Positions 7,270-42,043 of a stretch of DNA of 64,000 bases are shown here, in pieces. Below the pieces are notes generated by a model. It searched no databases and was not told the DNA's origin. It worked only from the letters and a program-made list of their open reading frames with translations. A program made the position numbers and the translations under genes. Position 1 is the stretch's first letter, and each line of letters starts with the position of its first letter. Source of the stretch: Candidatus Bathyarchaeota archaeon (GTDB lineage Archaea; Thermoproteota; Bathyarchaeia; 40CM-2-53-6; RBG-13-38-9); the NCBI GenBank assembly GCA_963807605.1, contig CAWECG010000004.1, positions 352,001 to 416,000 on the forward strand, written 5' to 3'.

Positions 7270-8187
7270 CTACAGTATTTGTTTCGATCTCTCAATTATC
7301 TTGGGCACGATCCACTCAAAACCTATAGTCATTATGTGTATTCCTTGAACTGCGGTCGATTTTCTTATGTCACTCACGAGTTTGCCAAAGATCTCAAGAT
7401 TCTCATTGAGGAAGGCTTCCTTGCCACCCTTTTCTCTAGCTAAGCGCAGACGGTTCTGAATCTCGTCCGGTACCATTATTCCGGGCACATTCTTGACCAT
7501 CCAGTCCATCATGCCCATAGATTTGAAGGGCGCTATGCCGATCAGTACGGGCATCTTCAGGTGTGAAACTTCTTTAACGAATCTCTTCGCAAGTTCAGGA
7601 TCGTACACACACTGAGTCTGTATGAAGTCTGCTCCCAGTTCAGCCTTCCGTTCTATCTTCAGGATCTCCGGCTCAATTGGATCTGCATTAGGGTTTCCAG
7701 CCACGCCAATGTTGAACTTCGGCGGATTGTCAATCTTGTTGCCCTTGAGATCTGTTCCCTCATCGACCATCTTGCTCATTAGGTCTACCAAAGATGTTGA
7801 GTCCAGGTCGTACACCGGCTTGGTTCTAGGGTCGTCTCCAATTGTTGTGTGATCGCCGCTGAGGGCAAGCACATTCTTGATGCCTAGTGCGCTCGCAGCA
7901 AGGAGATCAGCAGTTATTGCAAGTCTGTTCCTATCTCTGACAGTTACTTGGTAAACTGCCTCCAAACCAACCTCTCTTTGAATAATGTATGAGGGTATAA
8001 GCGCGTTCATGTATGCAAAGGCTGTTGGGTTGTCAGTGACATTTGCTGCGATGACATGGCCCTTCAGTATCTTGGCTGTTGCTAGGGTTTCCTCAAGACT
8101 TGTAGTCTTTACTGGTTCTATCTCGCCAGTAAAGACAAAGGTGCCTGCAAGCAGAGCCTTCGCTAGTTCGCTATACGCTTCTCTCAT
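7270..8187 (-). CDS. metF: Methylene-tetrahydrofolate/pterin reductase catalytic subunit
   Basis: NVTDNP, RDRNR, LALSGD, GADFIQTQ, GIHIM. Confidence 0.92.
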   Translation of the reverse strand: MREAYSELAKALLAGTFVFTGEIEPVKTTSLEETLATAKILKGHVIAANVTDNPTAFAYMNALIPSYIIQREVGLEAVYQVTVRDRNRLAITADLLAASALGIKNVLALSGDHTTIGDDPRTKPVYDLDSTSLVDLMSKMVDEGTDLKGNKIDNPPKFNIGVAGNPNADPIEPEILKIERKAELGADFIQTQCVYDPELAKRFVKEVSHLKMPVLIGIAPFKSMGMMDWMVKNVPGIMVPDEIQNRLRLAREKGGKEAFLNENLEIFGKLVSDIRKSTAVQGIHIMTIGFEWIVPKIIERSKQIL

Positions 8188-8831
8188 CTGAAGATAACTT
8201 CCCTAGCGCTGGCCATCAGAGAGTAGTCTTTGGGCGGCCTATACTTCTTGAATAAGTCGAGTCTTCCAGCGTCGTGTAGTCTGTTGTAGATCAGGATCCA
8301 GGCGCAATCGTTCTTCCAGCCGCCGACTTCGCATTTACCTTTGGCCTGACCGCCGCACGGTCCATTAAGTAAGCTCTTGCCACATCTTGCGATTGGACAT
8401 ATCCCGCCTGTATCGAAGAGGATGCAGTCTCCGCAAGCTCTACATCTCTCATAGTACCTTCCGATCCTCTCTACGGTACCGATGAACTGCGTATTACATC
8501 CGGGGATTGTATTTTTCTTTGATAACTCCGCTACAGTTTGTGTGGCCGTTCCACAGGACAGGACTAGAATAGCGTCCGAAGCTTCTACAGCGGGGCTATT
8601 TCTTTTAAGGTCTAGTCTTGTCAGCCTTTGGTCGCATACGGACTCGACTATAATCTGACCGGTTACTGACTTGCCCATCTTCTCGAGCTTTGAAGCATAA
8701 GACTTGACTTCTTCCTCTCCACCGGTCTTGCATTCTGTTGCACATGTGCCACAACCAACCAAGAACAGTTTGTTCAGGTTGCCGATCATCCGCTGGATCT
8801 CTTCATCGGGCTTTTGTGTGGTGATTATCAA
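8184..8831 (-). CDS. metV: MetV Fe-S/Zn small subunit of MTHFR
   Basis: GCGTCATEC, CRACGDC, CPIARCGKSLLNGPCGG, CEV, CAW; 4-bp overlap with metF. Confidence 0.9.
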   Translation of the reverse strand: MIITTQKPDEEIQRMIGNLNKLFLVGCGTCATECKTGGEEEVKSYASKLEKMGKSVTGQIIVESVCDQRLTRLDLKRNSPAVEASDAILVLSCGTATQTVAELSKKNTIPGCNTQFIGTVERIGRYYERCRACGDCILFDTGGICPIARCGKSLLNGPCGGQAKGKCEVGGWKNDCAWILIYNRLHDAGRLDLFKKYRPPKDYSLMASAREVIFR

Positions 8832-10531: not shown

Positions 10532-11494
10532 CTATACTTTACGTAACCCGAGCGCGTCCCTGAGTACCGCCTCATTGATTTTTCCTGAACTGTATGTGAG
10601 TCCTGTCTTGACATTGCTTATTGTAACCACAGCCGGGGCGAAGAGATTTGGATCTATCTTGTAAAAGTCGAACTCGGCTTCCTTGAGTATGTCATAGAAG
10701 GGTTTGCCATAGTCCCTTGAGCTTGATGAAGGGGCTTTGGCAACAGTCTTCTGAAGCGACTCGTCATCATCACATACGACCGTATAATGAGTAACACCAC
10801 CATAGAGTATTGCATCATTGGTCCTGCCCATTGCCTTCGCTGAGTTTGGATGCACCGGCGGGAGCGGCGCGTATCCACAGCCGAAGGTTATGGTTTTGGG
10901 ATCGAGTCCTAGTTCAGTTAATTTGTGAATGCCGGTTTCCACAACTCTCCCAGCTATTTGAATCGAACCTACTAAGCAAGAGGTAGGCGCGATTATCACA
11001 TAGAGGTTCTCAGGTGACACTCTGCACTCCTCACTCATGTAATCTATCGCTTTCTGTGTCGGAGGCTTGTCCGATTCGAGCAGTATTACAGCCTCTTCAG
11101 ATCGATCTTGATAGTTTATCTTCTCGTATAGTGCCTTGGGTTTGAGTGCTAGAGCTCGTGCTGGTCCGGATCCCATTGCGAAGTAATCGTTCGTCTTGAT
11201 CTGCCAACCTGCGTACTGTGAACCTAGAGTCGCTACCGCGGGTGCCCAAGTTTCGACGAAGATCGATGGCAAGTATTCTCCGCCGTAATTCTGGTAATCT
11301 ATTCTGGCTTTTCCAAGTCCGCCTAAGCAGATGTCTGTGATCAGAATTCCTGCTAGCGACCCGCCGGGAGCCTTGATTCCAGCGTCCACCATGACACAGT
11401 TTCTGTCCGACTGAACGGCTATTCCATAGGATTCTGGATCCCGAATGACATTCTTAATCAGTCTGGCTGCCTCGGCATTCACACTCTTAGTCAT
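10532..11494 (-). CDS. mch: Methenyl-H4MPT cyclohydrolase
   Basis: SQYAGW, GSGPARAL, RVVETG, TNDAILYGG, DFYKIDP.LFAPA. Confidence 0.96.
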   Translation of the reverse strand: MTKSVNAEAARLIKNVIRDPESYGIAVQSDRNCVMVDAGIKAPGGSLAGILITDICLGGLGKARIDYQNYGGEYLPSIFVETWAPAVATLGSQYAGWQIKTNDYFAMGSGPARALALKPKALYEKINYQDRSEEAVILLESDKPPTQKAIDYMSEECRVSPENLYVIIAPTSCLVGSIQIAGRVVETGIHKLTELGLDPKTITFGCGYAPLPPVHPNSAKAMGRTNDAILYGGVTHYTVVCDDDESLQKTVAKAPSSSSRDYGKPFYDILKEAEFDFYKIDPNLFAPAVVTISNVKTGLTYSSGKINEAVLRDALGLRKV

Positions 11495-11504
11495 GAGAAT
11501 CAGC

Positions 11505-12335
11505 CTATGCCTCTATGAATTTCTCATACCACTTCAGTTGAGGATTACGTTCAACACCCACAAACAATCTACCGTTTCCGTCTTCATTGTTATCGCCTGA
11601 GAAGGCATAGAAGGGCCCTTGGACGCTCTCTTTCTCAATCTTCGTCTGTCCTCTAACGTCATCGAATGAGAAGCTGGGGAGTATTGTCGGCAGATTTCCG
11701 GAGATTATGATCCTTCCCCCGGTCATGTGTGCTCCGGCTCTTCCGTAGCAGTCTCCAGCGATATGGATCGTTCCTCCTCGCATGTGCACTCCAGGAAACA
11801 TCTCTGAGTTTCCAGAGATCCTTATGGCTCCCGAGTGCATCCAAGCGCCAGTCTCGCTACCCGCATTGCCCTTTATCGTAATGCTTCCTCCCACCATACC
11901 CTTGGTCGTTCCACGACTAGCAGCGCCCACAAAGTCACCCGTGTTCCCTGAGACTTTTATGGCACCACCTTTCATGTTTGAGCCGAGCCAAGAACCAGCG
12001 TCACCCTCGACGAGTAGGGTTCCACCTTTCATCGATTCACCAATGTAAATGCCACCCGTACCTTTGACGTGTACCGTGCCTGCGGTCATTCCGAATCCTA
12101 TACGTCGGGTCTTCGACAGGTCGCCAACAATTTCGAGTGTGACCTCATTGGGATTGCCGCTGGTGTTGCCCTCAACTTTGAAGAGGGTCCTCAGTCTAAC
12201 TTGTCTATTGCCCTCCCATACTTCAGCGTTAGATATCTCTGTCGTTTTCTTGCCCGCAAGGGTGTCTGGTGAGAGAAGATCTAGATGAACGGGGTTTCGT
12301 ATCACACGTTTCAATGTCAGGACAAGTTTAGACAT
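11505..12335 (-). CDS. fwdC: Formylmethanofuran dehydrogenase subunit C
   Basis: GXGXG beta-helix repeats (G..M..G.I.V.G); position in the fwd operon. Confidence 0.94.
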   Translation of the reverse strand: MSKLVLTLKRVIRNPVHLDLLSPDTLAGKKTTEISNAEVWEGNRQVRLRTLFKVEGNTSGNPNEVTLEIVGDLSKTRRIGFGMTAGTVHVKGTGGIYIGESMKGGTLLVEGDAGSWLGSNMKGGAIKVSGNTGDFVGAASRGTTKGMVGGSITIKGNAGSETGAWMHSGAIRISGNSEMFPGVHMRGGTIHIAGDCYGRAGAHMTGGRIIISGNLPTILPSFSFDDVRGQTKIEKESVQGPFYAFSGDNNEDGNGRLFVGVERNPQLKWYEKFIEA

Positions 12336-12338
12336 TCT

Positions 12339-14036
12339 TCAGATATCCGCCTCACACGTGATCTTGGAGGGGTTTCTGAGAAAGTTCTCAGATATTGGGT
12401 AATTGTCAAGTTCTATTGTGTAGTAGTCCCTGAACTTTGATTCGATCTCCTTCAATAGATCGGTCTCGAGACTAGGCGAGACATCACTTTCAACATAGAA
12501 GGTCTTTCCAAACGACGTTCCTGCTATCCTTCCATCTTTGGAGACGACATTACCACCTTTGATGGTGAAGGATGCCTCCTTGAACGCCCTCCTCAAGATA
12601 ATGGGTTTCTTTTCGAGGTCTGTCTTTGACGGATCTAAGTCGTAGATTGCAACGTCGGCATCGGCGCCTACAGCGAGGTGACCTTTATTCGCTAGGCCAA
12701 GAGATCTTGCAGGCGCAGCCCTCGTTACCGCTGAGATCTCTCCCAGCGTGTACTCTCTGTCAATGGTCGGAAGATCCAGCCTTCTCCTTGCGGTTCGGTT
12801 GATCTTTGACATCGTCTTCTCACGGGCTTTGCGACTCATCAGCCATGCGATAACTTTGGGGTATGATGTGAACGGGCCGCCGTTTGGGTGATCTGTTGTC
12901 ATGAAGACCCTCCAAGGATCGTCTACTAAGAGAGCGAGCTCAAGCCCTATTCCCCATTGGACAGCGTTTACGTAGTTGCTTCTCTTGTAGTGGAATGGAA
13001 CAACTCCTGAGCCTGTCTCAGCCTCGACGTCTACGTTGACCCATTTGTTTCCTGACAGTTTGTGAAGGAAGTATTGGAATGGGCCGTCAGCAGTCATGGT
13101 TGTTGTGTCGCCGAATATTACCTGACCCATATCCACAGATACGTGGTGGTTCTTGTTGACGTAGTCGGCTATCTCTGGAGCTCCCGAGCCTAGGTTCAGC
13201 CATGATGAGCCTGAGAATCCTGTGAATTGCACGTGGGTGATGTGAATTATCGGTCTCTTCCCGTCCCAGAGATCCTTGACTGCCTCCATAGTCTCGATCG
13301 TTGTTCGATAGTTCCCTGGATTACCAAGATTGTTAGTATGGACGTGAATTATGTGTGGCAGGTTCAGGATCTTGTTGACCTTGCATAGACCTCTAACTAT
13401 TTCTCTCGGGGTTATGTCGAAGTTTGCCACTGGATCGTCCAAACCTCGTAGGAATCTTCCCCAGCCCCATGCCTCAACGCCTCCAGGGTCGACAATCTTG
13501 ATAGCATATCCCTTGGTTGCCTTTAGCATCCAAGAGACGTAGGCAGCGCACTCGTTGATCTTGCCATCTCTTAGATACTCCATCACCAACCAGTTGTTTC
13601 CGAGGAGCGGGAAACATGCCTTGTCAATCAGTGGAATCGAGTCGAGTTCTTCGTGTGTATGTCTTGTCTTGAGGGGCGGAGTTGCAGGTTCAAAGACGGT
13701 GGTGTATCCCATCTTTGCGTAACGGTAACCTGTTGTCCTGGTTGATGGGACAGAATAGCCGACCCCTGAGAAGGTACGTTCCGTCTTTAACTCAACATCT
13801 TTTCTGTGATCCTCGGGGCGGAGAAGCCTTCCAGCATTGACCTTCGATCCGGCTATGTGAGAATGAATGTCAACGCCACCTGGCATGACGGTCTTTCCCG
13901 ATGCGTTGATGGTACGTGCCTTCTTCCCAACAGAGGTGACTATCTTGCCGTCTCGAATGAATATGTCCAGTTTCTCTCCGTCGATCCCATTTAGTGGGTC
14001 GTAGACTTTTCCGTTAACAACCGCCAATTCCCTCAT
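12339..14036 (-). CDS. fwdA: Formylmethanofuran dehydrogenase subunit A
   Basis: DIHSHIAG.KVN.GR, HVHTNNLG.PGN, TTDHPNGGPF. Confidence 0.96.
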   Translation of the reverse strand: MRELAVVNGKVYDPLNGIDGEKLDIFIRDGKIVTSVGKKARTINASGKTVMPGGVDIHSHIAGSKVNAGRLLRPEDHRKDVELKTERTFSGVGYSVPSTRTTGYRYAKMGYTTVFEPATPPLKTRHTHEELDSIPLIDKACFPLLGNNWLVMEYLRDGKINECAAYVSWMLKATKGYAIKIVDPGGVEAWGWGRFLRGLDDPVANFDITPREIVRGLCKVNKILNLPHIIHVHTNNLGNPGNYRTTIETMEAVKDLWDGKRPIIHITHVQFTGFSGSSWLNLGSGAPEIADYVNKNHHVSVDMGQVIFGDTTTMTADGPFQYFLHKLSGNKWVNVDVEAETGSGVVPFHYKRSNYVNAVQWGIGLELALLVDDPWRVFMTTDHPNGGPFTSYPKVIAWLMSRKAREKTMSKINRTARRRLDLPTIDREYTLGEISAVTRAAPARSLGLANKGHLAVGADADVAIYDLDPSKTDLEKKPIILRRAFKEASFTIKGGNVVSKDGRIAGTSFGKTFYVESDVSPSLETDLLKEIESKFRDYYTIELDNYPISENFLRNPSKITCEADI

Positions 14037-15343
14037 TACCTGTTCCTCCGGATGGCCTTCAAACGTTTAAGGAGGGCATGCAAGATCTCGACATCAGTCT
14101 TGACTCCTTTCGGTGGATCAACTAGCTTTCTTGTCTCAAGCACAACTCCGTCCATGCGGTATACTGTTCCGGTCGTCTCTATTCCGACATGGGCAGAAGG
14201 AATTACTACGTCAGAGCACATTGTGGTGGGGGTTACGTGTGGATCGATTGATATCAGTGGAACCGAGGTGAGATTGCGGGCTGCCTGGTAGGGAAGGTTT
14301 GATACTGGATCTGAAGCAACGATCAAAGCTGAGTCACACTCTCCTCTTGACAACAGATCGACTGCTGAGGTCTCTCCTGGACTGTATCTGGGGAATCCTT
14401 GTGTGAAGTCTATGGCGTAGGGATAGCCGGTAAGCCAAGTGGCAACGTTGTTGGCGCCGTTTACATTAAAGTGCCCGCGCATAGGCATTATTACGAACTT
14501 CGTCTTGGAATTCAATTCACGAACCAGTGATAGTGCAGCATCGAGATTCTTGCTCTTGCCTGCGCTCATTGTTAGACCAAGACCAAAGAAGAGGGCCCCA
14601 AATTCGCAGTTGATCATTTTCTCTGCGATTTCTTCAATCTTATCTACTGGCACGCCAGCAATTTGGTCCTGTTCAATTTCATCGCCACGTACTGCAGCTC
14701 TTAGAGCCGACAGCAATTCGTAATCTTTGTTCGGCTCTGCCTGAACGAATATATCTGCCAGTTTTGCCGTGTCTGTCTTTCTGACGTCAACTACGATTAG
14801 TGTTCTTTCGGATCTGGATCTTCGAAATCTGCCTTTGCTCAGTACAGTATACCGAAGCATGTGGAGGGGATGGGCGTGAACTGGATTGCATCCCCAATAG
14901 ACTACTAAGTCTGCGCGATGTCGGATCTCACCCAATGTGCATGACGATTCCCCAATTTCATGAATGCCCAGAATGGCAGGTCCATGACAGGTTGATGTGG
15001 TGTTGTCGATGAAACCTCCAGCCTCCTCGGCCAGCTCAACCCCTACCTCAGTGGCTTCACAGCTTGTAAGACTCCAGCCGTAGAATAGCGGCGATCTAGA
15101 CTTCGCAAGCGTCTTCGCCGTGAAATCAATCGCCCTCGCATAGGTGCAACTTGACAGCTTGTTTTTCCGGCGGATCATTGGTTGCGTCAATCGCTCGTTC
15201 ATGTAGCCGAGAAACTTGCTTGTGGACATGGCGCACGCGTTCTTGACACCAGCAATAGCATTGCCCTTCACCGTTGCCTCTATATTGTCACAACAGCAAC
15301 CGCACACTGTACAGACAGCACTCTTGATGACTTGTTCTTTCAA
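14036..15343 (-). CDS. fwdB: Formylmethanofuran dehydrogenase subunit B (Cys form)
   Basis: CTVCGCCCD, STCHGP, MRGHFNV.G; TTG start at 15343 after a GGTGAGG RBS. Confidence 0.95.
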   Translation of the reverse strand: MKEQVIKSAVCTVCGCCCDNIEATVKGNAIAGVKNACAMSTSKFLGYMNERLTQPMIRRKNKLSSCTYARAIDFTAKTLAKSRSPLFYGWSLTSCEATEVGVELAEEAGGFIDNTTSTCHGPAILGIHEIGESSCTLGEIRHRADLVVYWGCNPVHAHPLHMLRYTVLSKGRFRRSRSERTLIVVDVRKTDTAKLADIFVQAEPNKDYELLSALRAAVRGDEIEQDQIAGVPVDKIEEIAEKMINCEFGALFFGLGLTMSAGKSKNLDAALSLVRELNSKTKFVIMPMRGHFNVNGANNVATWLTGYPYAIDFTQGFPRYSPGETSAVDLLSRGECDSALIVASDPVSNLPYQAARNLTSVPLISIDPHVTPTTMCSDVVIPSAHVGIETTGTVYRMDGVVLETRKLVDPPKGVKTDVEILHALLKRLKAIRRNR

Positions 15344-15371
15344 GTGTCCCTCACCGATGTCTTTCAATAGG

Positions 15372-15773
15372 TTAGTGACTCTTCCCAAATGATCTTGTGA
15401 CCAGCTCATCCACGCTGAGGACTTTTTCGCCTGTCGCTGACTCTAACGTTGCGGGGACTCCCTTGTAGGAGGGCATACCTGTCCCATCTGTATCGCAACC
15501 TGAAAGCTGCGTAGCCCAGAGGCTGTAAGGCATGAAAATGATTCCTTGCGGGAGGAGTTGAGTGGGAGCGATTGCCTTCACAACAACAGAGCCGTGTTCA
15601 GTAATGACTCGAATGTTCTGACCAGGGGTTACACTGATCTTTTCAAGATCAGTACTGCTGACCTCGCAACAGGCTACAGCCTGAAGGTACGCTTCAGAGA
15701 GTTTTCCATGCTCCTTTGTTCTTCCCTGGCTCAGACTTCTCCCGGTCAGCAAAGTGACTTGTACTCTTGTCAT
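15372..15773 (-). CDS. fwdD: Formylmethanofuran dehydrogenase subunit D
   Basis: TGRSLSQG, GSVVV, GIIFMPY, T.GTGMPSYKG; ATG at 15773. Confidence 0.92.
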   Translation of the reverse strand: MTRVQVTLLTGRSLSQGRTKEHGKLSEAYLQAVACCEVSSTDLEKISVTPGQNIRVITEHGSVVVKAIAPTQLLPQGIIFMPYSLWATQLSGCDTDGTGMPSYKGVPATLESATGEKVLSVDELVTRSFGKSH

Positions 15774-15994
15774 GATGAATGCTTCCAAGCATGGGAGTTT
15801 TAGCACTGACTTCAGTGAAGCCTTATCTAAGAGTTTCCCACGCGGAGAACTCTCAACATTGTCACGGGGCTACGCACCCGCATAGCAGGAAAGTAAGGAA
15901 ACTAAGATCCGATGTTATCGAGGGTGTGCGCGACGGCAGCGCTCCAAGCTATGGCCACGCCGGCACGACAAGCACAAAATAGCATAATCTAACG

Positions 15995-16149: not shown

Positions 16150-16695
16150 CTAAGTTGCTACCTGTCCGTTTTCTGCCCCAGTTGAAGATGCCAGTATATC
16201 CATAATATCCTTGAACTTGTCGGTTGTTTCAAGAAAGGCGTCGAGGATAGTTGTCCACAATCGTTTGTAGTTGACTGAGGTAGGTTTCTCGTTGAAGAAC
16301 TGCATCGCGTTGAAAGCCTTTGCATCCGCATCATGGATGGGATAGCTTGTTCTTAGTTTTCTAATGTTGGTCCAAACGTCAAGAATTCTGTCAAGGCCTG
16401 CGATACTTCTCTCCTTGGCCCAACGCTTCATAATGATTATCGTTCCAGAATCGTCCTTTTCAAGAGCCTTCTTGGTTTCTGGGTTTCTTATGAGCTGCAG
16501 TAACGGAGTTCTCGGAGCGTCGAAAACCTGCGCAAGTGCTGCTATCTTGTGTGTGAAGTTCTCCGCTATCATACATGGGCTTGCTATGTTCTCGTTCAAT
16601 CTAATATCGAGCGCAAATATTTTGGCTTTGAATTTCCACTGAAATGTTTTGTTGCGCGCGCGCCCAGACAGAAGATTCTTACCCTTAGAAACCAC
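16150..16695 (-). CDS. Hypothetical helical protein with HEPN-like R-x5-H motif, possibly 5'-truncated
   Basis: 181-aa ORF, IRKLRTSYPIH. Confidence 0.5.
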   Translation of the reverse strand: MVSKGKNLLSGRARNKTFQWKFKAKIFALDIRLNENIASPCMIAENFTHKIAALAQVFDAPRTPLLQLIRNPETKKALEKDDSGTIIIMKRWAKERSIAGLDRILDVWTNIRKLRTSYPIHDADAKAFNAMQFFNEKPTSVNYKRLWTTILDAFLETTDKFKDIMDILASSTGAENGQVAT

Positions 16696-16837: not shown

Positions 16838-17692
16838 TCAAATTCTTGCGAGTTTCAGAAGTCTTTCGTGCTCAATCTTCTCCATGTGAATGGAATGTAC
16901 GTCCTCTGGGAATTTACCTTCCTGAACCTCCGTTCTGTAGTTATTGAGGGCATCTAGCATCGAATCGTGCAGGCTGGCATACTGTTTCGCGAACTTCGGC
17001 GTCAAACCTAGTGATAGGCCAAAAATATCTGATATGTTAAGCCCCATTCCGTCGCAATAGGGACCTGAGCCCCATCCCAGGGTTGGAATGGCCAGTCTCT
17101 TTGAGATTATATCAGCCAATTCTGCGGTTGCAAATTCTATGACGACTGCTGAAGCCCCGTTCTGTTCAACGGCGACAGCATCGCCCAGTATCTTTTGAGC
17201 ACTCTCAGCTGTTTTACCCTGAACTCTGTATCCGCCTGAAAGTATCGCGGTCTGAGGAGTTAATCCGATGTGACCTATCACGGGGATGCCTGCACTACTT
17301 ATCGCCTTGACCTTATCACAGACTTCTATGCCACCTTCCAGCTTGACGGCATCAGCCCCCGCCTCCTTCATGAAACGTCCCGCGTTCCTCAAAGCGTCTT
17401 CAACACTGGCGTGATACGACATGAATGGCATATCGGCCAGTATCAGCGAGTGTGGTGCTCCTCTCACCACCGCTTTGCAGGCAATCACCATCTCATCCAT
17501 TGTAACTGGTACTGTGCTGCTATATCCCAGAGCAGTCATGCCTACGCTGCCATCACCGACCAAGATCACATCAACTCCAGCGCTATCAGCAAAAAAAGCG
17601 GTTGGGTAATCGTATAAGCTAACCGCAACTATCTTCTTCTTATTCTTCTTCATATCCAGCAAGTGACGGATAGTGACTTTTTTTCTCTCCAT
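16838..17692 (-). CDS. panB: PanB-family (ketopantoate hydroxymethyltransferase-like) protein, divergent
   Basis: YD, LVGD, ADMPFMSY, VKLEGG, GHIGLTPQ, PKFAK; ATG at 17692. Confidence 0.85.
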   Translation of the reverse strand: MERKKVTIRHLLDMKKNKKKIVAVSLYDYPTAFFADSAGVDVILVGDGSVGMTALGYSSTVPVTMDEMVIACKAVVRGAPHSLILADMPFMSYHASVEDALRNAGRFMKEAGADAVKLEGGIEVCDKVKAISSAGIPVIGHIGLTPQTAILSGGYRVQGKTAESAQKILGDAVAVEQNGASAVVIEFATAELADIISKRLAIPTLGWGSGPYCDGMGLNISDIFGLSLGLTPKFAKQYASLHDSMLDALNNYRTEVQEGKFPEDVHSIHMEKIEHERLLKLARI

Positions 17693-17788
17693 GACCCCAC
17701 TTCCCCTACGGAAATACATGCTTACGATATAAGACTGTTAACGCTCGATATCCAAGCATCGACTCGTGAGACTTGTCATTAATGTCGC

Positions 17789-18757
17789 TCACATTGATTT
17801 CTTCTTGATGACTTCTTTCGCTGCTTTCACAATGTCGGCACTTGACATGTTGTACTCGGCAGCCAGTTCATCCATACTTCCCGTCTGACCGAATCTGTCT
17901 CTGACACCCACTCGACGTATTGGAACTGGATAGTTTTCTGATACCACCTCGGCCACAGCACCTCCCAATCCACCTAAGATGTTGCTGTCCTCCGCCGTTA
18001 CTATGGCTCCTGTCTCTTTGGCAGCGTTTTCGATGGCGCGTTCATCCAAAGGTTTGATTGTGCTGATATTGATGACTCTGCTATCAATGCCTTCGTTCTC
18101 TAGGATGGTGGCGGCCTCCAGAGAACTTCGTACCATGATGCCAGTGGAGATTATTGCTACGTCTTTTCCTTCTCTCAAAATTGTAGCTTTACCTATCTCA
18201 AACCGATAATCGTCTCTGAATAGAACTGGCACTCGAGGCTCGGCTAACCTGATGGCGACTGGTCCAACGTGTTTAGCAGCTGCAACGGCGGCTTTCTTTG
18301 CTTCAATTGAATCTGAGGGGGAGATCAAGACGAGATCCGGTACGGCACGCAAAGAGGCTATGTCTTCAATTATCTGGTGGGATCCGCCCATGAATGTCCA
18401 GAACATGCCTGTGTTGCAGAGAATCATTTTCACGTTCAATCGGTCAAAGGCGATTTGTCTTATTTGGTTGAATGCTCTTCCAACAGCAAAGATGCTGTGG
18501 CAATGCGTGAAAGGTATTTTACCTGCCTCTGCCAATCCTGCAGCCACAGTCATCATGTCGGCTTCCGCGATGCCGAGGTTATATATCCTATCGGGGTATT
18601 CTCTTTTGAAAACAGGACCGACCTCGTCTTGAGGAAAATCCGCATACAGAACCACAATGTCCGAGTTTGCTCTAGCAAGTTCAATCAGAGCCTCGTTGTA
18701 ACCCTTGTACATTGATTTCAGTTCGCCTGGCTGCTCTCTAAGATATTTCAAGTTCAT
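17789..18757 (-). CDS. Transketolase-like protein, C-terminal subunit
   Basis: GIAEADM, GGSHQ, GKA..LREGKDV, TIKPLD, GGLG.AV. Confidence 0.92.
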   Translation of the reverse strand: MNLKYLREQPGELKSMYKGYNEALIELARANSDIVVLYADFPQDEVGPVFKREYPDRIYNLGIAEADMMTVAAGLAEAGKIPFTHCHSIFAVGRAFNQIRQIAFDRLNVKMILCNTGMFWTFMGGSHQIIEDIASLRAVPDLVLISPSDSIEAKKAAVAAAKHVGPVAIRLAEPRVPVLFRDDYRFEIGKATILREGKDVAIISTGIMVRSSLEAATILENEGIDSRVINISTIKPLDERAIENAAKETGAIVTAEDSNILGGLGGAVAEVVSENYPVPIRRVGVRDRFGQTGSMDELAAEYNMSSADIVKAAKEVIKKKSM

Positions 18758-18773
18758 CTTCCTTCCTTGAAGA

Positions 18774-19616
18774 TCATCTGAGAGCTTTCATGACCTCTGC
18801 GTACAATTCATCGGTGACCGAAGTGAAGTGTACTCGGCCTTCAAGTGACGGAACACCTTTGCCCTTAATTGTGTGCGCTATGATGATGCTAGGCTTGCTC
18901 GTGACTTCTTTAGCTCTGTCGAGAGCCTCCAGTATCTGACCCATATTGTGACCATTCGTCTCTGACACGTTCCAAGAGAAGCTTCTCCATTTTTCTGCGA
19001 GCGGTTCTATGTTCATCGTCTCAGCCACGGCACCAGTAGACTGGTATTCGTTTCTGTCAAGGATCGCGATTAAATTATCCAACTTGTAATGGGCGGCGGC
19101 CATCGCGGCCTCCCAAATCTGACCTTCATCACATTCACCGTCACCGATTATGCAGTAGACCCGGTATCTGTAAAGTTGCCTTCCAGAAGGATCCTTTGGA
19201 AAACCTATCCTAGCAGCGAGAGCGTTGCCCACAGCAAAGGAAAGCCCTGTGCCAAGTGACCCGCCTGAATAGTCCACGCCTGGTGTTGTCCTCTGACTGT
19301 GGGCTTGTAGGACTCCTCCGAACCTGCCATAAGACGTGAAATGTTTCTTGGGAAAGTAGCCAGCCTCTCCCAGAGCCGCATAATGCATCTCGCAGCAGTG
19401 AGCCTTCGACAGGATCAGTCTGTCTCTATTCGGCCATTTTGGGTTCTTAGGATCGTGTTTCATGTGGTGGAAGAATAGCGCCGTAATTATCTCAGCTTCT
19501 GAGAAGGATCCTCCTATCCACCCTTTGCCAGCGCTCTTCATCATTTCGATTGAGTGTCTTCGGAGGATCTTGGCCTTTGCTTCCAGTTCTTGTATTAACC
19601 TAGTATCATGCGACAT
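18774..19616 (-). CDS. Transketolase-like protein, N-terminal ThDP-binding subunit
   Basis: RDRLILSK.H, GSLG.G, GDGE.DEGQIWEA...N, HT.KGKG. Confidence 0.92.
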   Translation of the reverse strand: MSHDTRLIQELEAKAKILRRHSIEMMKSAGKGWIGGSFSEAEIITALFFHHMKHDPKNPKWPNRDRLILSKAHCCEMHYAALGEAGYFPKKHFTSYGRFGGVLQAHSQRTTPGVDYSGGSLGTGLSFAVGNALAARIGFPKDPSGRQLYRYRVYCIIGDGECDEGQIWEAAMAAAHYKLDNLIAILDRNEYQSTGAVAETMNIEPLAEKWRSFSWNVSETNGHNMGQILEALDRAKEVTSKPSIIIAHTIKGKGVPSLEGRVHFTSVTDELYAEVMKALR

Positions 19617-19685
19617 GGCCTATTCTTCTCTGAGAATTATTGCCAGAAACGATACTTCTCATGGATGGTAGATGAATCAAGCGTC

Positions 19686-20156
19686 TTACCTCCCAATCGG
19701 AAGTTTAATCTGTATTCCGCCAGCCACTTCATCCTTGTGCTTAGCGACATCGCATCCTTTGATTTCTGCTAGGAAGAGTTCAAGTGTTGTGTACACGATC
19801 GCTCTGTCCAAGTGGCCTCCGATAACGTTTCCATCATAGGTTCCCAAAGTGACGTGAAGATGAGGGATGAGCTGGTCACCCATGGGCAGGATATTCCCCT
19901 CCATTGTTAGAACCTCAAACGGACCTGTCTTCTTTATCACTGTGATCTTGTCTTGACCGAATGGAAGCTTTGAATCTGGTTTCACACCGAAGAAGCTTGC
20001 TTCGTAAACGCTCCCGATGGCTGAAAGAATAACCGCACGCTTGAAAGCATTCTCAGACATTACTTCTTCCAGTTTCTGACGAAGCTCCTCCTTTGGTCTC
20101 ATTCTCACGATCAGGACGTTGCTAAGATCGACCCTCTCAAAATACTTCATATTCAT
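19686..20156 (-). CDS. PPC/DUF296 domain protein
   Basis: SAIGSV, FEVL.MEGNI, HLHV, GGHL. Confidence 0.88.
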   Translation of the reverse strand: MNMKYFERVDLSNVLIVRMRPKEELRQKLEEVMSENAFKRAVILSAIGSVYEASFFGVKPDSKLPFGQDKITVIKKTGPFEVLTMEGNILPMGDQLIPHLHVTLGTYDGNVIGGHLDRAIVYTTLELFLAEIKGCDVAKHKDEVAGGIQIKLPIGR

Positions 20157-20359: not shown

Positions 20360-21202
20360 TCATTGAGGGCTGCGCGGTTTCTCCAAGAGCTTCCTCTTAA
20401 GAAGAGGCAAACCTTCGTCGTTGTGAGGTCTTCTTGCTAGTACGTCGAGGCTTTTCTCGATTTCACGGGCTTCATCAACAAGTCGTGCAGCGGCTCGGAT
20501 GATTTCGTGACCTGAGCAGACGAGCTGGACGTATCTTTCCCAATCTTTCTCGACGAAGCATCCTTCGTAATTCACATCTCCGGCACGCCGGGCCATTTCG
20601 TACGCTGAGGCAGCCTTCACCTTGGCGTAGGGATTTTGGAAACCAGCAGCCTCAGTAGCCCTGTCCTTTCCGACAGTGATTTTGGGCATTTCAGGTTTGA
20701 CTCCTTTCTTTATTGCTTCAATGAGCTTGTCGATCTCAGAGCGTAGCACGTCGAAGACGCCTGTAACCGCCAAGATCTTGATTATGTCGGAGTTGAAACA
20801 TGCCATCTCTACGGGGTCGAGGAATTCTCTTCTGGCCCCAATCATAACGTCGCCTTCCACGATTATGTATCCAAGTCCGGCCTCCTCAATGACCTTAGTC
20901 GCTTTCTTGGCAGGGTTATCTGACACTATGACAGTTGGAATTCCACTGACTTTGAATATCTCTCTAGCTTTCGCCGGCCCCGGTAGTGCGGCATTTGGCG
21001 AAGTGAAGATCAAAAGATCAGGCTTAGAACCCACCACCGCGTTTGCAATCGCTACGCAACTATCCGGATCCATCTTCGAACCTGAGCCAAATACTCTCAC
21101 TTCGATGTCGTTCCTCTCGGCTCTTTCGTCAAGTAGGAACTCTAGGACAGGACTGGAACCAATGTTTCCAACTTTTCCGAAGCCAATTTTGACTTTGCTC
21201 AA
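20360..21202 (-). CDS. mtd: F420-dependent methylene-H4MPT dehydrogenase
   Basis: GNIG, LLDERAER, SPNAALPGP, MIGARREFLDP.EM. Confidence 0.96.
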   Translation of the reverse strand: MSKVKIGFGKVGNIGSSPVLEFLLDERAERNDIEVRVFGSGSKMDPDSCVAIANAVVGSKPDLLIFTSPNAALPGPAKAREIFKVSGIPTVIVSDNPAKKATKVIEEAGLGYIIVEGDVMIGARREFLDPVEMACFNSDIIKILAVTGVFDVLRSEIDKLIEAIKKGVKPEMPKITVGKDRATEAAGFQNPYAKVKAASAYEMARRAGDVNYEGCFVEKDWERYVQLVCSGHEIIRAAARLVDEAREIEKSLDVLARRPHNDEGLPLLKRKLLEKPRSPQ

Positions 21203-21321: not shown

Positions 21322-22230
21322 GTGAAGTGGGAAAATTTGGGGTCGGTCGAGATAGAAGACACCTTTGCCGAAGCATTCCCAATGATAGTCGGAAGAATCC
21401 TGATTACCGCAGAGAATGAGAAATGGGCTCACATCTCTGCAAATAGCGCAACGGGATTTGCTTCCTCGATAATAATGTCTCCAGCCGAAGCAGGTATTGA
21501 GGGCGTATCTGTACCGCCGAACAAGACCCCAGATGGAAGACCGGGTGTGAACATACAAATCTGGCATAGAACCGGCCACGAATTCAAGTCTCAAATGCTT
21601 TCACGAATAGGGCAATGCATCCTGACATGCCCGACAACCGCTGCATTTGACTCCATCTATGGCGCCAAGAAGAGGCTGAAGATAGGCAGGGCAATTCGAC
21701 TCTTCGGAGACGGATATCAGAAGAAGGACACTCTTGGAGACAAGATCATCTGGCGAATCCCTGTCATGGAAGGCGAATTCATCATAGAAGACAAATTCGG
21801 CGTCAGACGAGGAGTAGCCGGCGGCAACTTCCTCATAATGGCCGACACGCTCAAGCACTGTCTCAGCGCAGCGGAGAATGCTGTAGCCGCTATTAGATCA
21901 GTAGAAGGTGTCGTTGTACCCTTCCCTGGTGGAATCTGCCGCTCAGGTTCAAAAGTGGGCTCAAACAAGTACAAGCTACCGGCATCCACCAACCATCCCT
22001 TCTGCCCAACATTGCGTGGAATTGTGGCTGACTCCAAAGTCCCTGAGGGTGTTAACAGCGTCTACGAAGTGATTTTGAACGGAATAGATCTCGCCTCTGT
22101 CAGAAGGGGTATGGCTGAAGGCGTAAAAGCTGCGTCTACCGCTGAGGGCGTGGTCAAGATAACGGCCGTAAACTTTGGAGGAAAACTAGGCCCATATAAG
22201 ATATCACTGCGGGAAGTCTTGACCAGCTGA
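21322..22230 (+). CDS. ftr: Formylmethanofuran:H4MPT formyltransferase
   Basis: IEDTFAEAF, TPDGRPG, QCILTCPT, GGNF, SGSKVGS, NFGGKLG. Confidence 0.96.
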   Translation: MKWENLGSVEIEDTFAEAFPMIVGRILITAENEKWAHISANSATGFASSIIMSPAEAGIEGVSVPPNKTPDGRPGVNIQIWHRTGHEFKSQMLSRIGQCILTCPTTAAFDSIYGAKKRLKIGRAIRLFGDGYQKKDTLGDKIIWRIPVMEGEFIIEDKFGVRRGVAGGNFLIMADTLKHCLSAAENAVAAIRSVEGVVVPFPGGICRSGSKVGSNKYKLPASTNHPFCPTLRGIVADSKVPEGVNSVYEVILNGIDLASVRRGMAEGVKAASTAEGVVKITAVNFGGKLGPYKISLREVLTS

Positions 22231-34257: not shown

Positions 34258-35232
34258 ATGAGTAAACAGTTGAAGCTGACGTGGGACTATGGAAGCCCCC
34301 GCGAATACCTGAGGCTTCATGAGAGGTTTGAGATGCCCCCCGTTATCATAACTTGCGCTATCACTGGCGGATGGCAAGGAAAGGAAGCAAACCCAAACGT
34401 TCCAGAAACACCCGATGAACAGGCCAAATCAACTTTTGAGGCTTACGAGGCAGGTGCTTCGGTAGTTCACGTTCATGCGAGGGATCCCAAGAAAGGATAT
34501 GCTGATCCTGTAGGCTCTAAAGAGATCTACTATGACATCAACAAGAGGATAAGAGAGCTCTGCCCAGACATAATTATCAACAACACCACCGGCGGAGGAC
34601 CAACAATGACTGTTGAGGAAAGGCTTCAGTCGGCCTTTGCCAACCCTGAAATGTGCAGTCTGAACATGGGTACACTTTGTATGAAGGGTCTCTATAAGGC
34701 CCGAAAGCCGCCTCTCACAGGCAGAGACCAAGACGTAGCGGTCGAGTCCGTGTTCAAGAACACTTATACTGATACTGAGAGATTTGCGAAGGAGATGCTC
34801 GACCGCAACGTTAAGCCTGAGATGGAGACATTCGGTGACGGCAATTGGTACTTGATAGATAATCTGATAAGCAAACAATTGCTGAAGCCTCCGTACTGGG
34901 TCTGCTTGGTCCTCGGAATGGGCAGCTCCACACCCCCAACACCTTGGCATTTGATGAATCAGACTGCTTACGCTCCACCAAACACCATGTTCAATATCAT
35001 AGGGATAGGTGTTCATCAGGTTCCTTTGACAACCTTTGCTATGATCATGGGGATGCACGTTAGGGTCGGCATGGAAGACAATGTTTACTATGCAAGAGGC
35101 GTCAAAGCGAAGAGTAACGCGGAGCTCGTTGCAAGAGCAGTCAGAATAGCCAAAGAACTCAACAGACCAGTAGCCACCCCAACCGAAGCAAGACAGATGC
35201 TGGGGATCTCCAAGAACCCAACCAAGTATTGA
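34258..35232 (+). CDS. Beta-keto acid cleavage enzyme (BKACE/Kce, DUF849), copy 1
   Basis: IITCAITG, HVHAR, SLNMG, RVGMEDN, ATP.EAR..LG. Confidence 0.93.
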   Translation: MSKQLKLTWDYGSPREYLRLHERFEMPPVIITCAITGGWQGKEANPNVPETPDEQAKSTFEAYEAGASVVHVHARDPKKGYADPVGSKEIYYDINKRIRELCPDIIINNTTGGGPTMTVEERLQSAFANPEMCSLNMGTLCMKGLYKARKPPLTGRDQDVAVESVFKNTYTDTERFAKEMLDRNVKPEMETFGDGNWYLIDNLISKQLLKPPYWVCLVLGMGSSTPPTPWHLMNQTAYAPPNTMFNIIGIGVHQVPLTTFAMIMGMHVRVGMEDNVYYARGVKAKSNAELVARAVRIAKELNRPVATPTEARQMLGISKNPTKY

Positions 35233-35576: not shown

Positions 35577-36551
35577 ATGAGTAAAACCTACAAACTGACA
35601 TGGGACTATTCAAGCCCCAGGGAATACCTCAGACTGCATGAGAAATTTGAGATGCCTCCCGTCATAATAACTTGTGCCATCACTGGAGGTTGGCAGGGTA
35701 AGGAAGCGAATCCAGGTCTTCCAGAGACGCCAGACGAGCAAGCAAAGTCAACCTTCGGGGCCTATGAGGCAGGCGCTTCGGTAGTTCACGTTCATGCGAG
35801 GGATCCCAAGAAAGGATATGCTGATGCTGTAGGCTCTAAAGAGATCTACTATGACATCAACAAGAGGATCAGAGAGCTCTGCCCAGACATAATCATCAAC
35901 AACACCACCGGCGGAGGACCCGGCATGAGCCTTGAGGAAAGGCTTCAGGCTGCCTATGCCAATCCTGAAATGTGTAGCCTGAATATGGGCACAATGGTTC
36001 AAAGGGGCCTGGTGAGAGCACGGACTGGTGCCCTCAAGGGCAGAGGAGAGGATCAAGTTGTCGAGACAGTCTTCAAGAACTCTTACACTGATACTGAGAG
36101 ATTTGCGAAGGAGATGCTCGACCGCAACGTTAAGCCCGAGATGGAGACATTTGCCGATGGTAACTGGTCGCTAATTGATAACCTGATAAGCAAACAGCTT
36201 CTCAAACAACCATACTGGGTCTGTCTCGTTCCCGGAATGCAGGGTGCCACACCTCCAACACCTTGGCACGTTATGAATCAGACCGCCTTTGCACCTCCTA
36301 ACACGATGTTCAACATCATAGGGATAGGTACCCACCAACTTCCTCTGACAACGTTTGCAATGATTATGGGATGGCACGTTAGGGTCGGCATGGAAGACAA
36401 TGTTTACTATGCAAGAGGCGTCAAAACGAAGAGTAACGCGGAGCTCGTTGCAAGAGCAGTCAGAATAGCCAAAGAACTCAACAGGCCAGTAGCCACCCCA
36501 ACCGAAGCAAGAGAGATGCTAGGGATCTCCAAAAACCCAACCAAGTATTGA
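35577..36551 (+). CDS. Beta-keto acid cleavage enzyme (BKACE/Kce, DUF849), copy 2
   Basis: Same motifs and length (324 aa) as copy 1, offset 1319 bp. Confidence 0.93.
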   Translation: MSKTYKLTWDYSSPREYLRLHEKFEMPPVIITCAITGGWQGKEANPGLPETPDEQAKSTFGAYEAGASVVHVHARDPKKGYADAVGSKEIYYDINKRIRELCPDIIINNTTGGGPGMSLEERLQAAYANPEMCSLNMGTMVQRGLVRARTGALKGRGEDQVVETVFKNSYTDTERFAKEMLDRNVKPEMETFADGNWSLIDNLISKQLLKQPYWVCLVPGMQGATPPTPWHVMNQTAFAPPNTMFNIIGIGTHQLPLTTFAMIMGWHVRVGMEDNVYYARGVKTKSNAELVARAVRIAKELNRPVATPTEAREMLGISKNPTKY

Positions 36552-40861: not shown

Positions 40862-42043
40862 CTACTCGATGTGCACTCGGAACAGGTCCATGTCTAGACC
40901 GATTTGGTCAAGGAATTCTTTGGCAGCGTGTTCGACATCTTTTGATTGAGTTATGTATCTGCCGACTATGAGTATGTCCGCTCCGGCCTTCATGGCGGCC
41001 GTCACAGTGCTCGGCTCCACTCCGCCGGCTACTGCCACGAGGAGTTTCCAATTCTTGAATTTCGTTTTTATCTCCTTGATGAGTTCCCATCTTGTCTTGC
41101 CTACTCGCTCCTCATCTATTCCTCTGTGGAGTATTATAACATCGGGTAGTTCCTTGAGCGACTCAAGAATCTTCATCGGGTCGGCGACGTCCATCATGTC
41201 AATTATCGCGTATATTCCAAGCCTTCTTGCCTCATAGATGAATTTGTCAAGCGTATCACGCGATGCAAGACCTGAAGCCACGACTGCGTCGGCGGTTTCC
41301 TCAAATGCAAGGTCGACTTCGACTTGGCCAACATCCAAAGTCTTGAGGTCTGCCACGATGAAGACATCCTTTGCAACCTGTCGGAGTTCTTGAATAACGC
41401 TAGCGCCGTACTTCTTGATTAGGGGAGTACCGGCTTCATATATTACCCTGTCACTCCTCGGTACTTCGGAGATTATCCGCTTCGTCCGTTCAAGATCGGG
41501 TATGTCTAGAGCTATCTGGAGATAAGGCGGCATCCAGAGTCTCGGAATTCTGAAGCCCATGATGGGGTGCGTCGCCCTGTCTTTATCGTAGATAATCTTC
41601 TCGATAGTCGGATACTTATTTAAGGCTCTTCTGACTGCGAGTTTCGTAGCGCTGTAGTTATACTGGTAGATCTTTCGGTAGTCTTTTGCCTCAGGGTGTA
41701 CGAAGACACTGCATAGAACGACCCAGTCTTCGACCACATCCTTCGGAATAAGTCCTTCTTCCACGGCATCCGCAATGGCCTTGGCGACACCAGCCTGAGC
41801 AGGACCAAAGATCTTCGCAACCTCAGATATGTCCTTGACAGTGACCTTAGGAACCACAAGTGTGTAGGGCTTCGATGGAAGGTTGGGCCTAATTACCGCC
41901 AGAAGCGGCGTGTGACCAGCGGAATAGTTCCCAAAGCTGTTGGCAAATGCTTGGCCAACTGGCCCCTCCTTGGTACCAATCAATAGATCCACGTGTGCAA
42001 TTTCAGGTTCTTTTCCGACTAAGGCTTCACCGATGAGGTACAT
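40862..42043 (-). CDS. fae-hps: Bifunctional formaldehyde-activating enzyme / 3-hexulose-6-phosphate synthase
   Basis: GEALVG..PE.AH.D, FGPAQ; LQIALD, EAGTPL, DLKTLD, HRGIDE, VAGG. Confidence 0.95.

Follow-up and report, generated by a model that had tools for sequence, protein, structure and literature searches.

A four-gene block among the one-carbon genes of a Bathyarchaeia family: a candidate link between tetrahydromethanopterin and small hydroxy-oxo acids

Why do genes for a transketolase (TK) and a PanB-family enzyme stand among the core genes for one-carbon (C1) transfer on tetrahydromethanopterin (H4MPT) in a Candidatus Bathyarchaeota archaeon? The question was raised by a window of 64,000 nucleotides, the whole stretch of DNA that was analyzed (GenBank assembly GCA_963807605.1), in which a block of four genes lies between mtd and fwdD. 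We propose, with a probability of roughly 0.4, that the block is a family-specific module connecting the C1 pool on H4MPT with small C3/C4 hydroxy-oxo acids that carry no phosphate. The four genes, in their order on the minus strand, are as follows.

19686..20156, minus strand: PCC/DUF296 protein (PCC), 156 aa, PF03479; candidate Zn decarboxylase/isomerase with an acetolactate-decarboxylase fold
18774..19616, minus strand: split transketolase N subunit (TK-N), 280 aa, PF00456; of the His26→Trp clade
17789..18757, minus strand: split transketolase C subunit (TK-C), 322 aa, PF02779/PF02780
16838..17719, minus strand: altered PanB-family hydroxymethyltransferase/aldolase, 293 aa, PF02548

An earlier reading of the window made from the sequence alone (the sequence-only reading) had described these genes as co-oriented and tightly spaced, which agreed with the gaps of 69, 16 and 69 bp between them. 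The end of mtd is separated from PCC by 203 bp and fwdD starts 1,031 bp past PanB. The GC content of the block equals that of its flanks, and the nearest homologues of its proteins carry Bathyarchaeia names. Judged by this arrangement, mtd and the block are possibly on one transcript. A promoter and terminator scan, using bacterial-type models on an archaeal host, gave nothing above shuffled sequence.

TK-N and TK-C have the domains and fold of transketolase and retain the thiamine diphosphate (ThDP)/metal motif (D155 and N185), H66 and the activating E411. Residues were mapped on E. coli TktA and counted in 32–34 loci of the Trp type described below and 18 of the His type. In addition, TK-N keeps H100 and, by motif, H261, with I189→Ser, and TK-C keeps D381, F437 and H473. 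The sequence-only reading had drawn attention to GWIGG in place of GHxGG, and Trp33 (E. coli His26) was indeed present in the query, as in each of its 120 top homologues. Trp occupied this position in 32/32 loci of the clade, against 0/18 His-type controls and 0/150 wider representatives, and a quick version of the TK tree placed the Trp-type sequences on one side of a single branch (SH-aLRT 97). The KAH and LQAHS variants listed in that reading are present as motifs, but they are not losses because His66 and His100 are retained.

The changes in TK-C were more extensive: R358→Y, L382→F, S385→D, F434→H, H461→N, D469→M and R520→E. These include the loss of the hydroxyl-recognizing Asp469 within TFMGGSHQ, as had been claimed, so that of the pentose-phosphate signature (His26, His261 and Asp469) H261 alone is kept. 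The phosphate site (R358, S385, H461 and R520), which like D469 is intact in the His-type controls, reads Y, D, N and E here. Across the clade, S385 is replaced by G or D, D469 by M or L and R520 by various residues. Two new invariant His residues are present in TK-C, one at F434 and one two residues before it. The sequence-only reading had overlooked these, as well as I189→Ser and the lost phosphate site. In transketolase the donor hydroxyl is anchored by H100 and H473, and acceptor range is commonly engineered at D469, S385 and R520 (bioRxiv 10.1101/719906). From these residues we infer an active ThDP enzyme that would still carry a glycolaldehyde unit, with a narrowed and phosphate-free acceptor channel. 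The enzyme resembles the split transketolase of Carboxydothermus hydrogenoformans (PDB 6YAK; TM 0.88, 47% identity) and other split TKs (PMC13663882) in its two-gene architecture and its ThDP-binding and activating residues. It differs from them in His26→Trp, the lost D469 and phosphate site, F434→His, I189→Ser and its separate clade. At two bacterial loci (L044:5675-9876 and L124:3678-9865), the Trp-type pair adjoins one or two full-length transketolases.

The source genome (2.65 Mb, 94% complete) encodes one TK pair and one PanB. The separate canonical copies that the sequence-only reading had suggested looking for were thus not found in it, although three relatives (G003, G007 and G013) carry, in addition, a full-length TK in which all canonical residues are present. 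Furthermore, the Fae-Hps fusion, present in 14/16 genomes of the family (the 16 used for all family counts are 69–98% complete), gives a ribulose monophosphate route to pentoses, so that transketolase is not needed for these. The canonical TKs and Fae-Hps together would therefore cover the pentose-phosphate role.

The PanB-family protein passed TIGR00222 (301.9 bits against a cut-off of 207.55) and the PRK00311 cut-off, and keeps the metal ligands and catalytic residues D45, S46, D84, K112, E114, H136, E181 and D217. Its changes, in E. coli numbering, are a Gly inserted after D45, A24L, I202W, I212G and V214N. The motifs GDGSVGM, GWGSG and DGMGLN of the sequence-only reading were confirmed, but its EFA is not diagnostic, as catalytic Glu181 is kept and canonical PanBs can have E-F as well. 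The insertion, W216, G226 and N228 (query numbering) are common to 30 homologues and absent as a set from the next 90. One PanB, always of the altered type, was identified in each of the 16 family genomes, and these form one clade (support 100). The pocket positions I202, I212 and V214, located by alignment to the E. coli enzyme, read W, G and N in all 16 genomes and I, V and V in the sister family; the hydrophobic gem-dimethyl pocket expected of a pantothenate-pathway PanB is absent. The same positions were used to shift the substrate range of E. coli ketopantoate hydroxymethyltransferase (KPHMT; PMC7610986, PMC7611260). A bulky Trp and a polar Asn in this pocket would suit H and OH in place of the two methyls. 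Overall, the protein is 43% identical to E. coli PanB (PDB 1M3U) and shares its Mg ligands, K112, H136 and E181. It differs in the insertion, the three pocket changes, its H4MPT setting and the lack of any pantothenate-forming enzyme among those found in the family genomes.

Searches for PPS identified it in 0/16 family genomes, and PanC was found in none of the family genomes searched, the sole trace being a 65-position partial match in one of them (G002). Ketopantoate would therefore have no known route to CoA in this family. In the sister family, a canonical PanB lies inside a PoK-PPS-PanB-PanE cluster. PoK-like kinases without PPS are common in the order; a pantoate-kinase-like GHMP gene in the source genome (L276:5556-6578, on contig C3), of a kind carried by many PPS-less genomes of the order, is a candidate pantothenate kinase. 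Such kinases may salvage pantothenate, by analogy with the Picrophilus enzyme.

Together, the residue changes in TK and PanB, the failure to find PPS and PanC, the canonical TK in three relatives and the canonical PanB of the sister family make it highly probable that these are not an ordinary pentose-phosphate TK and pantothenate PanB, in line with the sequence-only reading. The only-copy status of both in the source genome, which that reading had named among its refuting conditions, is outweighed by these controls. The proteins are members of the TK, PanB and PCC families; judged by residues and genome context, they do not qualify as EC 2.2.1.1 or EC 2.1.2.11 enzymes. In addition, neither Fhs nor FolD was found in the source genome, which makes H4MPT the likely C1 carrier and is consistent with the C1 exchange with H4MPT that had been foreseen.

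Other unusual PanBs were observed among the homologues. Asn at 214 also occurs in 18 of the next 90, which represent a second altered clade (Ala at 202; L227:10001-10861 and L228:3214-4083), sister to the operon type with support 91. No shared neighborhood was found for this clade; one member is preceded by a tripartite tricarboxylate transporter and a ComA-family gene, and its vicinity contains no pantothenate genes. A third odd PanB, in family f18 (L255, L256 and L258), has a long branch and changes at the equivalents of D209, V214 and H216.

The PCC protein matches the PF03479 profile and fold, and the HxH...GGH pattern that had been noted is present. H99, H101, H115, E81 and E126 are invariant. 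Its predicted model was confident (pLDDT 94) and matched other PCC proteins first, followed by acetolactate decarboxylases and C11orf54 (background Z <4). The Z of 9.4 and rmsd of 2.8 A over 114 residues with an acetolactate decarboxylase (4BT2) upheld the fold likeness suggested by the sequence-only reading; C11orf54 (1XCR) gave a Z of 5.6. PCC thus shares the fold and three-His (HxH...H) site of acetolactate-decarboxylase-like Zn decarboxylases. Unlike these relatives it is a single 156-aa domain, at 8–18% identity. Both characterized relatives, acetolactate decarboxylase and C11orf54/BKGD, decarboxylate 2-hydroxy-3-oxo acids (PMC12337341). The model makes PCC a candidate Zn decarboxylase/isomerase, although fold by itself does not establish function. 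More distant PCC homologues have unrelated neighbors.

The four-gene block was found on a single contig in 11/16 family genomes, and was split by contig ends in three more. These counts represent inheritance and retention rather than independent events, because the genomes are kin. The placement between mtd and fwdD is seen in eight genomes; in G007 the block has been relocated as an intact unit. Mean identity across the relatives is 68–72% for the block, 75% for mtd and 69% for mch. The expectation that the gene set is conserved together therefore held for most genomes, but they do not form an obligate set: in G004 only PCC and PanB remain, adjacent to each other and without the TK pair, and other phyla have the Trp-type transketolase (Trp-TK) with no PanB. 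In G010 PanB stands on its own; the PCC orthologue of that genome is broken by stops (G010:C88:1522-1882), and no Trp-TK was found there.

Away from the operon, the source genome holds a cluster of a DUF1537 kinase, PdxA2 and a threonine dehydrogenase (TDH)-like dehydrogenase (C4:180471-183955, equal to L277:4472-7959), of which the kinase and PdxA2 (C4:180471-182769) are the pair of the known tetronate pathway. The kinase, below the DtnK cut-off (301 of 450 bits), is present in 14/16 family genomes against 2/25 others, and PdxA2 adjoins it in all 12 loci read. The TDH-like dehydrogenase is present in 16/16 family genomes at 73–88% identity, against ≤44% elsewhere, and its 13 best matches among the other loci compared are Trp-TK loci. 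It is as conserved in the family as Ftr or FwdA. A vitamin B6 role for PdxA2 was rejected, since PdxS is present and PdxJ absent in the source genome and PdxA2 is not needed for that vitamin.

Outside the family, Trp-TK occurs without PanB. In Dehalococcoidia its neighbors include TRAP transporters, a TDH-like dehydrogenase, short-chain dehydrogenases, E1 alpha/beta, a 3-hydroxyisobutyrate-dehydrogenase-family gene, an HpcH aldolase, a 2-hydroxyacid dehydrogenase, an ApnO homologue and, in many cases, a PCC from a different subfamily. The Nitrososphaeria copy is part of a sugar ABC operon and has Zn dehydrogenases and HpcH close by. A bacterial subclade neighbors the DUF1537 kinase, the TDH-like enzyme and xylose-isomerase-like genes, and at two bacterial loci the kinase, TDH-like dehydrogenase and Trp-TK form one run. 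One Trp-TK contig carries enolase and glycerate kinases. Overall, the PanB-less loci lie near an HpcH 2-oxo-acid aldolase, a glyoxylate/hydroxypyruvate-reductase-like gene, ApnO, or glycerate kinase with enolase. Like PanB, HpcH is a metal-dependent 2-oxo-acid aldolase (PMC7610986), and one may therefore replace the other. The common thread of these neighborhoods and the kinase cluster appears to point to C4 sugar acids and hydroxypyruvate/glycerate. In the Dehalococcoidia clusters, two small paralogues (137 and 139 aa, 55% identical, of no clear family) follow the TRAP genes (L197:3008-3878).

Based on these observations, we propose how the module might operate, with its substrates, carrier, PCC activity and direction all taken from the context described above. 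The altered PanB would form a Mg-enolate, as ordinary PanB does, but from hydroxypyruvate, and catalyze hydroxypyruvate + methylene-H4MPT ⇌ 3,4-dihydroxy-2-oxobutanoate (2-oxo-tetronate) + H4MPT. The Trp-transketolase would take a glycolaldehyde unit from a small donor (hydroxypyruvate or 3-oxo-tetronate) and transfer or release it, the recipient being a very small acceptor molecule or a proton. PCC may decarboxylate a 2-hydroxy-3-oxo acid, for example 3-oxo-tetronate to dihydroxyacetone. The TDH-like dehydrogenase, DUF1537 kinase and PdxA2 would drain the reduced C4 acid to dihydroxyacetone phosphate and CO2. We lean toward a catabolic or salvage direction, since the kinase step proceeds in this sense and the surroundings of the TK clade elsewhere are catabolic; the released carbon would then enter Mtd or MetF.

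Several points weigh against this proposal. The chemistry of PanB does not require H4MPT, as KPHMT also acts as a pterin-free aldolase (PMC7610986). The block is away from mtd in G007 and G004, and the kinase cluster, 190 kb from the operon, is linked to it via co-distribution among kin. The operon has no transporter or dehydrogenase for tetronate, and no OtnI/Hyi-like isomerase was found in the source genome with an E. coli hyi query. The TDH-like enzyme (327–333 bits, below the cut-offs) may be a true threonine dehydrogenase, a Kbl-like gene being present in the genome. To our knowledge, no PCC protein has a proven enzyme activity.

The strongest alternative, although unlikely, retains the same type of chemistry with another small polyhydroxy substrate, either branched apionate or, with PanB as a pterin-free aldolase, a larger aldehyde. 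In the apionate version PanB would strip CH2OH from 2-oxo-apionate, a hydroxylated ketopantoate, and TK or PCC would cleave 3-oxo-isoapionate, a 2-hydroxy-3-oxo acid like acetolactate. The ApnO homologue in the Dehalococcoidia clusters is consistent with this, as is I212G, which makes the pocket wider; KPHMT with V214G accepts erythrose (PMC7610986). However, Trp216 narrows the pocket, and the ApnO (by tblastn), TRAP and sugar-binding proteins of those clusters had no match in the source genome. ApnO also oxidizes D-erythronate (PMC13753588) and so does not single out apionate. An unbranched, tetronate-type C3/C4 acid is at least as compatible with the context as the branched hydroxy/oxo acid of the sequence-only reading.

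It is improbable that PanB instead adds C1 to pyruvate to give 4-hydroxy-2-oxobutanoate, which would pass via homoserine and threonine to glycine and acetyl-CoA through TDH/Kbl, with TK and PCC accessory. The filling of one methyl pocket by Trp216, the TDH-like gene of all 16 genomes, the Kbl-like gene and the retention of PanB where TK is lost suit such a route, but it leaves Asn228/Gly226, the kinase-PdxA2 pair and the tight TK link unexplained. Still less probable is a C1 assimilation cycle beside the acetyl-CoA pathway, in which two C1 units (methylene-H4MPT) would yield one sugar-level C2, glycolaldehyde. Hydroxypyruvate and methylene-H4MPT would give 2-oxo-tetronate and then 3-oxo-tetronate, which TK would split to a glycolaldehyde unit and glyoxylate; glyoxylate would return via glycine and serine (serine hydroxymethyltransferase, SHMT, with the second C1) to hydroxypyruvate. 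The location of the block inside an H4MPT/acetyl-CoA decarbonylase/synthase (ACDS) gene cluster, its conservation like that of mtd and mch, an SHMT with a GlcD-like neighbor and a TalC/FSA-type gene in the source genome favor the cycle. Against it, the genome already has ACDS and Fae-Hps, Trp-TK stands elsewhere in uptake-and-oxidation clusters, G004 lacks Trp-TK, and no isomerase or transaminases for the cycle were identified. Least probable of all are ordinary functions behind diverged sequences (a housekeeping TK, a ketopantoate-forming PanB fed by methylene-H4MPT from mtd, and PCC as regulator or bystander), which the PanB cut-off scores, the single copies of TK and PanB and the ApbA-like, PoK-like and CoaBC genes of the source genome would allow, but which the lost TK phosphate site, the canonical TK of the three relatives and the contrast with the sister family's pantothenate cluster oppose.

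The DtnK/PdxA2 tetronate chemistry is said to have been described by Zhang in 2016, and the known apiose/apionate routes have phosphorylated intermediates at the TK step. By analogy, the proposed C3/C4 module would operate in the manner of tetronate catabolism coupled to pterin-based C1 chemistry, outside every described tetronate or apionate route. It resembles tetronate catabolism by DtnK/PdxA2 and LtnD/DenD-OtnI-OtnK-OtnC (PMC12994016, PMC13753588) in having the DUF1537 kinase and PdxA2 in the same genomes and in its proposed 2-oxo- and 3-oxo-tetronate intermediates. Those routes, however, involve neither PanB nor transketolase, PCC or a pterin C1 carrier. Neither OtnI/OtnC nor LtnD/DenD was found beside the operon or the kinase; elsewhere the genome has distant members of these families only. 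With the apiose/apionate pathways (ApnO, AptAB; Carter 2018), as summarized in PMC13753588, it shares a transketolase route, ApnO and hydroxymethyl-rich substrates, although no ApnO was found in the source genome. No paper on the Trp-TK clade or the operon was found in the literature searched, in which subscription journals were thinly covered.

The flanks of the block carry ftr, fwd, mch, a MetF-like gene, ACDS subunits and Fae-Hps, of which the following features were placed.

20360..21202, minus strand: mtd, F420-dependent methylene-H4MPT dehydrogenase; upstream of PCC on the same strand
21322..22230, plus strand: ftr, formyltransferase, divergent from mtd
16150..16695, minus strand: 181-aa open reading frame between PanB and fwdD, without a family match; this site varies among relatives
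10532..15806, minus strand: fwdD-fwdB-fwdA-fwdC-mch, downstream H4MPT pathway genes (fwdA/B/C named by sequence and order)
7270..8187, minus strand: MetF-like methylene-pterin reductase
40862..42043, minus strand: Fae-Hps fusion

The 181-aa reading frame was considered as a fifth operon gene and rejected, as it had no match in 11 related loci. No Mer above cut-off was identified in the 16 family genomes; the operon is not needed as its substitute, given the MetF-like gene in the window. That gene overlaps a 215-aa partner, possibly MetV (7270-8831, minus strand). The glycine cleavage P protein was not found. SHMT lies directly behind a GlcD-like FAD oxidase and its Fe-S partner (L313:5060-9006, contig C3 of the source genome), a possible glycolate-to-serine link. 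Two beta-keto-acid cleavage enzyme (BKACE) paralogs lie beside the ACDS genes (34258-35232 and 35577-36551, plus strand), and BKACE genes were also observed near Trp-TK in loci L043 and L203.

In sediments, Bathyarchaeia rank with the most abundant microbes (PMC10321748), and automatic annotation, the source from which their metabolism is read, labels the genes of this operon transketolase and panB. If the proposed module is real, the core C1 genes of a whole family would include an unrecognized link from H4MPT to small sugar acids. The PanB family would then have a role beyond pantothenate synthesis, and prokaryotic DUF296 a first testable reaction. The Trp-TK would be a natural transketolase for unphosphorylated substrates, of the kind that engineers build by mutating the same residues. 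The four proteins are small and amenable to in vitro assay.

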